In this document: positions 1-40,655 of the stretch, one piece after another
How the letters are laid out: each line of letters begins with the position of its first letter
Position numbering within the stretch: the first letter of the stretch is position 1
NCBI GenBank assembly: GCA_965203805.1
Contig: OZ241917.1
Location: 256,001 to 320,000, forward strand
DNA length: 64,000 bases
Reading direction: 5' to 3'
From: Candidatus Latescibacterota bacterium
GTDB taxonomy: Bacteria > Latescibacterota > UBA2968 > GCA-2709665
The notes under the pieces: generated by a model
The model's database searches: none
What the model saw: the letters and a program-made list of their open reading frames with translations, nothing else
Told to the model about the DNA's origin: nothing
Position numbers and translations under genes: made by a program

Positions 1-264
1 CTATCGGAAGACAACAGCGACGATCTCATCGACGTATTCAAGACCGAATGGTACCGGAGCGTCAAATCGGGAATGACGCCGGGCGGCAATCTGAGGACTT
101 ACCGGGAGAATCACGGGTTGACTCAGGCAAGGCTGGGGGAGATGCTCGGCGGTGTTCCTCGCCAGCATATCTCGAATATGGAGCGGGATGTCAGATCGAT
201 CAGCCTGAAAACCGCACGCAAGTTGGCAGAGATATTCCGTGTGTCCCCCGATAAGTTCATTTGA
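1..264 (+). CDS. XRE-family HTH protein (HigA-like antitoxin/regulator), 5'-truncated by window edge
   Basis: Frame 1 is open from base 1 (LSEDNSDDLIDVF...) into NLRTYRENHGLTQARLGEMLGG..QHISNMER, a Cro/C1 HTH pattern. Confidence 0.8.
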   Translation, partial: LSEDNSDDLIDVFKTEWYRSVKSGMTPGGNLRTYRENHGLTQARLGEMLGGVPRQHISNMERDVRSISLKTARKLAEIFRVSPDKFI

Positions 265-38003: not shown

Positions 38004-38037
38004 AGAAAAAACACGCTGATTTCAGCGTGTTTTTTCT
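38004..38037. terminator. Bidirectional-type intrinsic terminator ending the redox operon
   Basis: AGAAAAAACACGCTG-ATTT-CAGCGTGTTTTTTCT. Confidence 0.85.
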
Positions 38038-38057: not shown

Positions 38058-39038
38058 TCAGGGCACGCGTTTGCCGAAGTTTTTCGCGAATTCCAGAAAG
38101 TCGCGAAAGTCGACCAGCCCGCTTCCGTCAAGGTCGAAGGTGGCGTTGTCGGTGTTGAAGGCCTGTGCGAATGCGATGAAGTCGCTGAATCCGATTTCGC
38201 CGTCATTGTCGAAGTCGGCCCGGGGATTGACGGGGACGATGACGGCCGTTCCGGAGAACGAGACGGTAATGCTGCGGTTTTCAGGGTCGTTGCTCAGAAT
38301 TGTGAGGGTGCCGGAGAATGGACCGCCCTCCGAGGGTGTAAAGGTGATATCGACGGTCCCGCTGTCGCCGGGCGCGACCATGAGTCTCGTGCGGCTGAAC
38401 GTGACGCCCTCGAGGTCGGACTCCATGTTCGAAATCCTGAGGGGCTCCCCTCCGGTATTCTTCACGACGAGGGTAAGGGTCCTGGCTTCTCCGGCGGGAA
38501 CGTCCTCGCCTAAGTCGAGAGATGTATTGGCGAGGCTGATTGCCGGCGGCGCGACGGCCAGCAATCCCCGGATACTCGTCGCCGCGGCGCTGAGACCGGA
38601 AGCGCCGCGGCCGATGTGCCGGACGATCCCTTCACGGTCCGCGACCAGCATCGTGTGGGTCCCGTGAGATCCCCTGACACTGCCTGCCTTAAGCAGGAGG
38701 GGAAACGTGATCGAAGTCGTTGATTGAAATCCTTGAAGTTGGGACTGACTGCCATTGTAGATGTCGAGCCCCAGGACCGCAACGCCGTCATCCTGGAACG
38801 CCTTCCAGATCTGCTGTTCAATGGACGGACCCGCCGCCCTGCAGGTGGGTCAGTTGTGGCCCAGGTAATAGAGAACCAGAATGCTGCCCTTGTAATTCGC
38901 GGTGGCGTAGGTTTTCCCGTCCAGCCCCGTCAGCGAGAAGGTGGGCGCCGCGTCTCCGACACTCTGGGCTTCGGCGGGTTCCGGCGGGTTGAGTCCGAAG
39001 AGCAGAAGAAACACAAGGCACGTCGCGATTCGACTCAT
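38058..39038 (-). CDS. Secreted selenoprotein: AhpC/TSA-TlpA redoxin (UxxC) + Ig-like domain + double EF-hand/dockerin-like domain
   Basis: ORFs 38850-39038 and 38058-38651 are in one frame and separated only by TGA at 38852-38850, read as HN-U-PTC; signal peptide; SD AAGGAGG; 326 aa. Confidence 0.85.
38823..38849 (-). promoter_or_regulatory. Candidate bacterial SECIS element
   Basis: UGA + 10 nt + stem GGGCGG / loop CGGGU / CCGUCC; loop starts 16 nt from UGA, with G at loop position 2. Confidence 0.65.
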
Positions 39039-39071
39039 CGAAGGCCTCCTTTAAGAAAGTGAAGGTTTGTG

Positions 39072-40655
39072 TCAGAAATAGGTCTTAAAACGCATTTCAA
39101 GTCCATTGAACGGCAATACCTGATAGCATGTCCCCGATGTACACGCGGCGCCGCCCCGCCTCCGGCCGGCGAAGACGAGGGCTTCGTATCTGTCGAGGAA
39201 GGCGGCGTTGAGATTGACCGCCACCCAGGTCCGCGACCCGGTTTCGATCCGGTCCGTCGTGGCGCTATCATCCACTTCGAACGGGTCGTTGGTGCGATCC
39301 AGAACGAGAGCGGCCCCCACGCCCGAGGGATGCTGGAATGAAAACTGGGCATACACGTCACGGAACGTCGGCTCGTTTCGGGGAAGCCTTGCCGCGCGTC
39401 GGACCTGCAGATCGAAGCCCGTGACAGCCCCGCCGGGTGCGATGGACTCGATTCCCGCGCCGGCAATCCTGTGCATTCGGATGCCCTTCAATTCGTCTTT
39501 GCCCCAATCCACGAACAGGCTGGTCGAAATCGCGCGGCCGTGGTCTTCCGGGTGGTGGTCGATGTCCAGGCCGACGTACCGTTCATTGAAAGTCGTCGCG
39601 AATCCGGGCGCCAGTTCGTTCTTCCCCTTACTGATGTTTGCCGTCAGCGTCCCCAGCCCGAAAATCGAATACGTGGCCTCCGCCTGATAGCCCGTTTCCG
39701 TATCGGCAATCAGGGCATGGGTGGCCCGGTTGAGCAGGACGGCCGAGTGTTCGCGGACCAGGGAAGGGGGATCGTTGAAACTGAAGGCGAAATTCTCATA
39801 GTCCTTGTATTCCAGGCTGAGACCCAGGTTGGAAATCCCGGCGTTTGCCGAAAGATACAGAGCGCTGCCGTCCACGTGCACGTCGTTCAGCCCTGCGTAT
39901 TCCGCGTATACGGTCGCGTACAGGTCAGAGAATCCGGATGCTTCAAATGCCGGCGTGACGTCCAGCTCCAGGAAACCCGACCACGATCGGGTCGAATCAA
40001 GCCCGGAGGCGTGGTGACTGACGGCCGTAACACCGGCCTTAATTTGGCTGGCAGGCTGAAGCGAGACCTCGCCTCCGACCAGCCAGCTATCGCGCCGCGG
40101 CAGGTCCTGGAGCGGGTTGCCCACTCGAACCGCGGGCGGAATGTCACTTAATACGGGTCGCCCGATCAGGGCTTTGGCCCCGGCCCGCGGCCCCGTCCAG
40201 GTGGCCATGCCTCCCTCGAGGTCTCGCGAAGGCGAATAGCGTCGCCGGTATTGCCCGCTCTCCAGAATTACGCCCGGCAGATCGAATGCCCTGAGCGTGA
40301 TACCCCGACCCAGGATGGCATAGTAGTTGCCCGCAACCAGTTCGGCGGGTCCATGGGTCCACCGCAGTTGTTTCTGGGCCAGATGCACAACCTGGTATTC
40401 GACCTGTGAAAGCGGCGAGTCGCGACCGGTGTTGCGCCATGCGTTGAAAATCTCGGCCTGCAGGCCCGCCTGAAATTCACCCCGGGTGTAACTGATATCG
40501 AACTGTTCGTAAAGGTTCGAAATTGCAAGCGAATCCGAGCCCGGTACGCGTCCCCGCTGGACTTCGGTCAGGCTGGATGCAGTCACCTGCGCGACCGCGG
40601 GCTGCGCCGTCGACAGCAGTATTGGCACGATCAGGTTATTGATCAGCGCTCGCAT
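39072..40655 (-). CDS. DUF6029-like outer-membrane beta-barrel protein
   Basis: Signal peptide, GNYYAILGRGITLR, EYKDY, C-terminal RRGGAACTSGTC and terminal Phe. Confidence 0.7.
   Translation of the reverse strand: MRALINNLIVPILLSTAQPAVAQVTASSLTEVQRGRVPGSDSLAISNLYEQFDISYTRGEFQAGLQAEIFNAWRNTGRDSPLSQVEYQVVHLAQKQLRWTHGPAELVAGNYYAILGRGITLRAFDLPGVILESGQYRRRYSPSRDLEGGMATWTGPRAGAKALIGRPVLSDIPPAVRVGNPLQDLPRRDSWLVGGEVSLQPASQIKAGVTAVSHHASGLDSTRSWSGFLELDVTPAFEASGFSDLYATVYAEYAGLNDVHVDGSALYLSANAGISNLGLSLEYKDYENFAFSFNDPPSLVREHSAVLLNRATHALIADTETGYQAEATYSIFGLGTLTANISKGKNELAPGFATTFNERYVGLDIDHHPEDHGRAISTSLFVDWGKDELKGIRMHRIAGAGIESIAPGGAVTGFDLQVRRAARLPRNEPTFRDVYAQFSFQHPSGVGAALVLDRTNDPFEVDDSATTDRIETGSRTWVAVNLNAAFLDRYEALVFAGRRRGGAACTSGTCYQVLPFNGLEMRFKTYF

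Follow-up and report, generated by a model that had tools for sequence, protein, structure and literature searches.

Among described selenoproteins, those closest to the gene considered here are the peroxiredoxin (Prx)-like thiol:disulfide oxidoreductases. The Sargasso Sea paper (PMC1088965) describes the Prx-like family as distantly similar to Prx, with a thioredoxin-type UXXC motif (U, selenocysteine, Sec) replacing TXXU. Table 1 of a 2026 review (PMC13188914) lists 'Prx-like thiol:disulfide oxidoreductase' (PF00578, UxxC/UxxU) as a predicted selenoprotein family and also holds entries for 'Thiol:disulfide interchange protein', 'Thiol-disulfide isomerase-like' and 'TlpA-like' (cd02966), 'Redoxin family protein' (PF08534, UxxC) and 'DUF1573 domain-containing protein' (UGC). 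Selenoprotein families are named by domain and Sec motif (2022 review, PMC9312934), and because of this rule the protein encoded at 38061..39038 of the stretch analysed here falls under the Prx-like thiol:disulfide oxidoreductases: it matches Pfam AhpC-TSA (PF00578) over residues 27–117 with 52.4 bits against a cut-off of 26, and carries a UxxC motif (U63-P-T-C66). The stretch, called the window below, comprises 64,000 nucleotides (nt) from a Candidatus Latescibacterota bacterium (contig OZ241917.1, positions 256,001 to 320,000). The interval 38061..39038, on the minus strand, is a single gene for a predicted exported redox selenoenzyme, in which the TGA at codon 63, judged from comparison of related sequences, very probably encodes Sec.

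With the listed Prx-like selenoproteins the window protein shares the PF00578/PF08534 domain, Sec as the first residue of UxxC, the existence of Cys homologs and a hairpin directly after the UGA. It differs, in a comparison made by description only, in the addition of an immunoglobulin (Ig)-like domain, of which longer relatives have at least two, and of a dockerin. An earlier note on this DNA had called the architecture unusual. This stands for the fusion to Ig and dockerin domains, which is all that looks undescribed; the catalytic part is of a known kind, UxxC redoxins being listed already in Table 1 of PMC13188914. In the searched text of that review the terms 'dockerin', 'signal peptide' and 'Latescibacter' are absent. 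The Ig and dockerin fusion, an operon with a DUF6029 gene and the spread of the family in the phylum were not found by term search in the reviews or in literature listings, and among the papers listed for selenocysteine with dockerin, none has either word in its title or abstract. Likewise, the literature listings held no co-occurrence of Latescibacteria with dockerin, cohesin or type IX secretion, and in the matching passages of PMC8318568 Latescibacter, Gemmatimonad and Zixibacteria appear beside selenoprotein terms merely as bins.

An in-frame TGA in a conserved reading frame

The ATG at 39038..39036 opens a 62-codon open reading frame (ORF; 39038..38853) that begins MSRIATCLVFLLLFGLNPPEPAEAQSVGDAAPTFSL, ends VLYYLGHN and halts at the TGA (38852..38850), where the first Cys of a redoxin motif belongs. 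Behind the TGA the same frame runs on as PTC-RAAGPSIEQQIWKAFQDDGVAVLGLD / PTCRAAGPSIEQQIWKAFQDDGVAVLGLD, and the next stop is the TGA at 38060..38058. The product of read-through is 326 amino acids (aa) long, and a 197-aa ORF (38651..38058, P0009) is its C-terminal part. The observation of the earlier note is thereby confirmed as a whole: the halt at the first-Cys position, the open frame leading into the 197-aa ORF and the sequence GGGCGG/CGGGU/CCGUCC, proposed as a hairpin 10 nt past the UGA and present at 38839..38823, are all as it had described them. Orthologs of 325–328 aa have the same start, TGA and end as the window gene, and in most of them the terminal stop is TGA too. Relatives range from 324 to more than 766 aa, with a varying number of Ig domains.

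Alignment of 38 redoxin-domain copies from 30 loci in 30 genomes places TGA (UxxC) at codon 63 in 36 copies and TGT (Cys, motif CPVC) in the other 2. In stop-free homologs the aligned residue is always Cys, and one Cys homolog of full length and identical architecture, P0027 (437 aa), is recorded under the name 'peroxiredoxin'. Matches were obtained in 61 of 61 genomes (60 related genomes and that of the window), nearly all of those spanning the redoxin domain holding exactly one TGA. When 168 genomes of the phylum were searched with residues 1–160 (E ≤ 1e-10; listed rows counted by hand), 110 had a redoxin match. Exactly one TGA occurs in 142 of the 150 matches listed; six have no stop, one has TAA, and one has TGA together with TAG. 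Cys forms number 10 in all, distant TlpA types included.

Constraint is evident on both sides of the TGA. In an alignment of 25 sequences with members down to 35 % identity, V27, F34, L36 and G60 are invariant before it, and C66, P71, G90-L91-D92 and F112-P113-L114-L115 after it. The ratio of nonsynonymous to synonymous substitution rates (dN/dS) against five orthologs is 0.10–0.17 for residues 27–62 and 0.11–0.31 for residues 64–130, the stretch that would be non-coding were the TGA a stop. Both flanks are under purifying selection. The residue that would start the 197-aa ORF, Met in the window, is Leu in the orthologs.

Two further studies supplied metagenome contigs that cover the codon itself (X5 record 9, X7 record 12); these differ from the window at 6 and 5 positions, respectively, all elsewhere. 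These independent contigs keep the TGA, and an assembly error at this position is ruled out. In the same two sponge-metagenome studies, Logan contigs both stop at 38879, and a separate 32-letter contig spans 38850–38881 at about twofold depth; this suggests that variation among strains or paralogs splits the assembly graph exactly at the Sec codon.

The Sec redoxin is present once in the window genome, where the most similar Cys paralogs share 26 % identity with it. Four other genomes of the genus carry two such genes in tandem, the ortholog being followed immediately by a second Sec-redoxin gene (L024, L025, L026 and L027 in G004, G009, G010 and G002, respectively), with the motif U-D/N-L-C and 64–67 % identity over the full length.

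The hairpin behind the TGA and the selenocysteine machinery

A hairpin resembling a selenocysteine insertion sequence (SECIS) follows the UGA. The 36 Sec-form sequences, of which 31 are distinct, align without gaps from the UGA to +48 (counted from the U of UGA) and show little or no variation in the core G21-G22-G23-U24-C25-C26. The pairing proposed in the earlier note (stem 14–19/25–30, loop CGGGU) has −9.3 kcal/mol and is the most stable local hairpin in the window sequence; the same energy is obtained for most orthologs of the genus. Across the family, however, only 70 % of its cells pair, and −5 kcal/mol or lower is reached in 17 of the 31 distinct sequences. It fails in paralogs and was rejected as the family structure, being kept as the likely local structure of the genus only. 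A shifted pairing of 4 bp (stem 18–21/26–29, loop G22 G23 U24 C25) forms in 29 of 31. Its pairs 18–29, 19–28, 20–27 and 21–26 are retained in 28, 31, 30 and 31 sequences, respectively; pair 19–28 alternates between GU (16), AU (9) and GC (6), and pair 18–29 changes from GC to CG in three sequences. The shifted pairing outdoes all three 3′-slid controls on either side, and RNAalifold chooses the same four pairs. All 31 sequences are able to form one of the two pairings, and both put GGU (+22..+24) in the loop. Thus, of the earlier claim, a conserved hairpin stands, on pair counts, RNAalifold and energies, while the 6-bp pairing does not extend to the whole family.

Synonymous sites within the hairpin are nearly fixed. 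For Gly at +22..24, 33 of 35 cases use GGT, which is the rarest Gly codon genome-wide (16.4 %); 35 of 36 preceding codons end in CG, and the following Pro is encoded by CCG in 34 of 36. Four in-family Cys forms that keep Gly-Pro use GGC, GGG, GGG and GGT for Gly (GGT in one of four). The conservation of the hairpin is unexplained by the protein sequence alone. One Cys form (CKYC; L082, G054:C178:1000-1700) lies beside a Sec paralog and retains GACGGUCCGUCC after its Cys codon; the SECIS-like hairpin kept there may be left from a recent switch between the two residues.

Like the E. coli fdhF SECIS, the window hairpin is short, lies inside the coding sequence and has GGUC at +22..+25 from the U of UGA. 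It differs from fdhF in that the conserved stem of the window family spans only 4–5 bp, with no sign of a conserved bulged U. In the fdhF loop, SelB is contacted through G23 and U24. The loop of the window hairpin starts 18 nt after the UGA and holds a G in a small apical loop, as bacterial SECIS elements do; the spacing from UGA to loop given for these in PMC10778597 is 16–37 nt.

All four genes for Sec synthesis and insertion named in the earlier note (selA, selB, selC, selD) are in the window genome. With 73.4 bits the tRNA-Sec exceeds its cut-off of 47, and it is called SeC, anticodon tca, by ARAGORN; SelA scores 477 bits and the SelB wing domain 71.9 bits, and the three genes are clustered at G000:C1:1837983-1841270. 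SelD scores 359 bits with one in-frame TGA. The selD gene (L017, G000:C1:2775468-2776391) is itself a selenoprotein gene with the site TCG-U-AAK (UxxK), and a 6-bp hairpin there has a GGUC loop at +21..+24. Two further frames of the genome have one in-frame TGA each. A 937-aa frame like formate dehydrogenase (Fdh; G000:C1:788378-789433, context CSRA-U-HAP), with GGUC at +22..+25 in a 7-bp hairpin, is likely to be a second selenoprotein of the genome. A frame with an AhpC/TSA domain (G000:C1:4220148-4220639, GTW-U-RRS, UxxS) is followed by a hairpin whose loop is AGUU, not GGUC; the listed 'Peroxiredoxin-like family protein, UxxS' selenoproteins may include it.

Of the 168 genomes of the phylum, 130 have a SelB-wing match. 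In G065, G078, G086 and G090 a redoxin match is found without SelB, and these four genomes all carry Cys forms (WATWCPxC), as a Sec reading of the TGA predicts. TGA closes 2558 of 4500 long frames in the window genome, is its commonest stop and also ends the selenoprotein gene; reassignment of TGA in this genome is ruled out.

Domain architecture, rival explanations and proposed mechanism

The exported redoxin with Ig-like and dockerin-like domains proposed in the earlier note is borne out by Pfam and NCBIfam and by structure prediction with AlphaFold2 (AF2) and Foldseek. The predicted signal peptide (MSR, a hydrophobic core and AEA, then Q) is of the Sec export type, with no twin arginine, as judged by eye; an N-terminal hydrophobic stretch is found in 25 of 25 aligned homologs, and A24 is nearly invariant. 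Besides AhpC-TSA, Pfam Redoxin matches residues 27–147 (37.2 bits, cut-off 26.6). In the best solved relatives by sequence, which are of TlpA/ResA type, WCxxC aligns to N-U-P-T-C. The Ig-like β-sandwich matches Pfam DUF1573 (48.7 bits, cut-off 26.1), HYDIN_VesB_CFA65-like_Ig (44.7) and NCBIfam choice_anch_D (51, cut-off 45). The C-terminal module consists of two repeats of a Ca loop and helix, DFDNDGEIGFSDF and DLDGSGLVDFRDF, with EF-hand matches at residues 274–322 (EF-hand_1, 33.6 bits). Dockerin_1 (PF00404, dockerin type I) reaches 18.9 bits, below its cut-off of 22.9; it matches at E ≤ 0.01 in 21 of the 25 family members (best 3.8e-7). Other NCBIfam matches stay below cut-off, namely the ResA subfamily (44.2 vs 170), DsbE (16.2 vs 359) and a dockerin model, as well as weak matches to thiol peroxidase, PrxQ and glutathione peroxidase.

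With U written as C and the 25-sequence alignment as input, AF2 gave a model with a mean predicted local distance difference test (pLDDT) score of 86.9; values are above 90 over the redoxin domain and below 50 only at residues 5–23, in the signal peptide. Residue 63 lies directly before helix 64–81 in the model, so that the redox motif stands at the N-terminus of helix 1 of a thioredoxin fold, as in ResA, TlpA and DsbE. By Foldseek the closest structures to the redoxin domain are ResA, DsbE and a Bacteroides protein disulfide isomerase, with template modelling (TM) scores of 0.78–0.85 (0.83–0.85 for ResA, DsbE and TlpA types; ResA 1su9/1st9, TM 0.85, root-mean-square deviation (rmsd) about 2.0 Å), and Bcp (3drn, 3hjp) reaches 0.73. 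The Ig domain resembles the PapD-like domain of HYDIN (2e6j, TM 0.81). Modelled alone, the last 58 residues have a pLDDT of 97.2, and ranks 1–13 of the Foldseek list are all solved dockerins (best 2y3n_B, TM 0.84, rmsd 2.0 Å), while calmodulin-type EF hands give TM scores of about 0.3. For a domain this short the Foldseek E-values stay weak (best 1.7e-3). As modelled, the C-terminal module is a dockerin fold.

Three described systems resemble parts of this architecture. ResA, TlpA and CcmG (DsbE) have the same fold (rmsd about 2 Å), CxxC at the start of helix 1 and an export signal, and a Cys-type member of this family is encoded in the operon of the window gene. The window protein differs from them in having Sec for the first Cys and the Ig and dockerin domains, and in having H-N before U63 where the Cys paralogs of the genome have W (WATWC). 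By analogy, the protein would work like the ResA family without being a curated member of it. In the C-terminal region of M. tuberculosis DipZ (2hyx, 5cyy) a TlpA-like thioredoxin domain is likewise followed by a β-sandwich in one exported polypeptide; DipZ, however, is a Cys protein fused to a membrane domain and lacks a dockerin, and its domains are placed differently, since the overall rmsd is 21 Å. With the dockerin-bearing enzymes of cellulosomes the protein shares a C-terminal duplicated Ca-loop/helix module, and cohesins are encoded in the window genome. Its cargo, however, is a redox selenoenzyme rather than a glycoside hydrolase, and the cohesin carriers have C-terminal domains (CTDs) like those of the type IX secretion system (T9SS).

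Were the TGA a real stop, the locus would hold a gene for a 62-aa secreted peptide and one for a 197-aa Ig-dockerin protein, or else a redoxin with a nonsense mutation. Public gene calls agree with this (the 197-aa P0009, and homologs of 197–241 aa named 'choice-of-anchor D domain-containing protein'), and TGA is the commonest stop of the genome. Yet a TGA kept at one codon down to 35 % identity is unlike a decaying pseudogene; purifying selection acts on the 67 codons that separate it from the ATG of the 197-aa ORF; that ATG is a Leu codon in orthologs; the TGA falls inside both the redoxin domain matched by Pfam and the thioredoxin fold modelled by AF2; and full-length Cys forms of the same architecture exist. 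A real stop is therefore extremely improbable. Nearly as hard to sustain is read-through of the UGA without selenium, by near-cognate Trp, Cys or Arg or by a local change of code, which would give an ordinary redoxin. The inserted residue is not distinguished by any computed result, and the conserved stem is short; set against this are the complete Sec machinery, the selD gene with its own UGA at a UxxK site, the invariable Cys of stop-free homologs, the confinement of TGA forms to SelB genomes save one, GGUC at the fdhF offset, and the use of TGA as the terminal stop of the very same gene. The remaining rival accepts a selenoprotein and makes it a peroxidase, Prx-like or like glutathione peroxidase, acting on peroxides outside the cytoplasm, instead of a disulfide reductase. 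Sec is a good residue for reducing peroxides, the best Pfam match is AhpC/TSA, the weak NCBIfam matches include peroxidases, and Bcp is among the Foldseek matches. The motif, however, is of the thioredoxin type, UxxC and not the TxxC/TxxU of peroxiredoxins (AhpC/BCP): in the genome's own BCP (TPGC), Thr stands opposite U63 and Cys opposite C66, and in the TlpA-like paralogs U63 is matched by the first Cys of WCxxC. ResA-, DsbE- and TlpA-type structures also fit better than Bcp. A peroxidase is thus unlikely, though far less so than the two preceding readings, and reductase chemistry, argued from these relatives, would be moderately probable.

Several points weigh against the Sec reading. No NCBIfam selenoprotein model reaches its cut-off, and a search of 38700–38950 against Rfam at E ≤ 10 gave 0 matches. 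The conserved stem has only 4 bp and −3.4 kcal/mol, and part of the GGGUCC conservation follows from the conserved Gly-Pro. Shuffled versions of the 71 nt surrounding the UGA fold equally well (z = 0.07; 95 of 200 at least as well), folding energy having proved an uninformative test for hairpins in a 59 % GC genome; it is in conservation, of the TGA codon and of a GGGUCC core at constant spacing, that the locus exceeds chance. The strict pattern of TGA, 18 nt, 4-bp stem and GGUC occurs at 12 sites genome-wide, compared with 7–23 at offsets of −6 to +6; since the pattern alone fails to find selenoproteins, it was dropped as a scan for the selenoproteome. One genome (G119, 92 % complete, 270 contigs) has a TGA form and no SelB-wing match. 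The alignment of the TGA to codon 63 is established within the 30 loci and L053, and 106 of the 142 TGA rows lie outside these; additionally, the genomes compared are kin, so the TGA counts are non-independent. Contigs from an RNA library (X18) cover 38086–38233, 38307–38493 and 38882–39148, and none spans the TGA; as possible DNA carry-over they were dropped as evidence of expression. Sec insertion is inferred from sequence, and function, electron donor and docking are proposed from homology.

That the gene encodes a selenoprotein is nonetheless held with great confidence, and the Sec redoxin interpretation of the earlier note is supported by the TGA and Cys codons of homologs, the hairpin, the sel genes and the metagenome contigs. 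The whole explanation, one gene for an exported Sec redoxin with hairpin-directed decoding of the UGA, is regarded as highly probable. A short mRNA hairpin 18 nt past the UGA would display GGU (+22..+24) in its loop; SelB with Sec-tRNA(Sec) would bind this hairpin with the ribosome at UGA-63, and Sec would be inserted with no termination. The pre-protein would be exported by its N-terminal signal peptide. U63, at the start of helix 1, may then act as the nucleophile attacking an extracytoplasmic disulfide, sulfenate or peroxide and form a selenenylsulfide with the resolving C66. A thiol relay would re-reduce this bond, with the operon's Cys-type TlpA-like protein and a DsbD/CcdA-type protein as plausible members, and the Ig-like spacer and dockerin fold could place the enzyme on a cohesin-bearing partner. 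Sec insertion, export, reductase chemistry, electron donor and docking are inferred here from knowledge of the respective families.

Operon, cohesin carriers and annotation

The selenoprotein gene is the last of three minus-strand genes that form an operon with a Cys-type TlpA-like redoxin and a DUF6029 protein (Table 1). The first protein matches Pfam AhpC-TSA (85.9 bits) and Redoxin (70.7 bits) and the NCBIfam ResA subfamily (102.7 bits, below the cut-off of 170). The DUF6029 gene ends 34 nt before the start of the selenoprotein gene; its start codon is uncertain (the ORF is open to 40769) and the C-terminus of its product is RFKTYF. A sequence search of the PDB with the DUF6029 protein gave a chance-level match only (E 0.46), and NCBIfam none. 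In 19 of 30 loci, each from the taxonomic family of the window, the gene next upstream of the Sec gene is that for DUF6029; tilS lies downstream in 13 of 30. The three minus-strand ORFs further upstream (41632–42786, 42857–44332 and 45529–46599; 384, 491 and 356 aa) have no Pfam match at E ≤ 0.1. The one DsbD/CcdA-type membrane protein of the window genome is a possible electron source.

Table 1. Features of the selenoprotein gene and its operon (window positions), and cohesin-domain proteins elsewhere in the genome
Feature	Position	Strand	Basis or remark
Exported TlpA/ResA-like redoxin, Cys motif WATYCKPC; first operon gene	40636..41175	minus	Translation, Pfam
DUF6029 protein; second operon gene	39072..40655	minus	Pfam DUF6029, 54 bits
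Shine-Dalgarno-like AGGAGG	39045..39050	minus	6 nt 5′ of the ATG; direct sequence reading
Predicted selenoprotein coding sequence, 326 codons, UGA as Sec at codon 63	38061..39038	minus	Translation with TGA as U
Predicted signal peptide, residues 1–24	38967..39038	minus	By eye
Thioredoxin-fold redoxin domain, residues 27–147, U63-P-T-C66	38598..38960	minus	Pfam, solved relatives, Foldseek
Predicted Sec codon 63, in-frame TGA	38850..38852	minus	Aligned TGA/TGT in copies
SECIS-like hairpin	38823..38839	minus	Pair counts, RNAalifold, energies, fixed synonymous sites
Family-wide hairpin core	Stem 38835..38832 with 38827..38824; loop GGUC 38831..38828	minus	Loop at +22..+25 from the U of UGA
Ig-like β-sandwich, residues 165–264 (DUF1573/choice-of-anchor D/HYDIN-PapD-like)	38247..38546	minus	Pfam, NCBIfam, Foldseek
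Dockerin-fold C-terminal module (modelled), residues 269–326	38061..38234	minus	EF-hand_1, Dockerin_1, AF2, Foldseek
Final stop TGA	38058..38060	minus	Sequence; no GGUC hairpin behind it
Intrinsic terminator closing the operon	38004..38037	minus	15-bp stem and T run, 3′ of the selenoprotein gene
L058, 360 aa: signal peptide, cohesin, T9SS-like CTD	G000:C1:3837417-3838499		Pfam
L059, 1776 aa, cohesin-domain protein	G000:C1:3329366-3334696		Pfam

Dockerin-like modules are found at about 55 places in the genome (62 high-scoring segment pairs), among them all 13 Dockerin_1 matches above cut-off. The closest paralogous module (1937407–1937574) is 66 % identical to that of the selenoprotein and matches Dockerin_1 over the cut-off. 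Two Pfam cohesin domains are present, in L058 and L059, and both carriers end in T9SS-like CTDs (FlgD_ig, 37.6 bits; Por_Secre_tail, 22.1, below the cut-off of 27). The module of cohesin and CTD has 9 matches in the window genome and is present in multiple copies in 26 of 26 relatives searched. Together with the dockerin modules, L058 and L059 resemble a display system built on cohesins and dockerins, here in a lineage that is non-cellulosomal. Docking of the selenoprotein itself on a cohesin through its dockerin is suggested by these modules, but can be put forward only tentatively.

The mis-annotated selenoprotein gene with its undescribed domain fusion is real, and the annotation error is systematic. 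Because gene finders take the in-frame TGA for a stop, this gene and many relatives are stored as headless fragments; the window call and nearly all public relatives are such fragments of 197–241 aa, named for the Ig domain, so that redox function and selenium dependence are invisible in databases. Given the size of the family in the phylum and the share of listed matches with a single TGA, selenium use in the lineage is underestimated. The Sec redoxin with its dockerin fold, in a genome with numerous dockerin-like modules and several cohesin carriers, is a case in which the idea of a selenoenzyme outside the cytoplasm, possibly docked at the surface, can be put to the test. Since the very short hairpin has an E. 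coli-like GGUC loop at the fdhF offset, direct expression in E. coli may be feasible, which suggests a comparison of Sec and Cys TlpA-type reductases.

Listed Sec copies number from one to at least four per genome, with at least one Ig spacer. A more speculative proposal, on balance doubtful, is that these proteins are the first described dockerin-tagged selenoenzyme family, and that a lineage associated with sponges, corals and seawater shows Sec redoxins on its surface through T9SS-anchored cohesins. If so, there would be an extracellular selenium-dependent redox layer reducing host or environmental disulfides or oxidants beyond the outer membrane, and the DUF6029 operon partner might be the outer-membrane route of the Sec redoxin. 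The window stretch is present in sponge, coral and marine metagenome runs of seven coded studies. NCBI taxon names of close homologs differ, Gemmatimonadota being given for P0005, P0008, P0031 and P0039 and Candidatus Latescibacteria for P0015.

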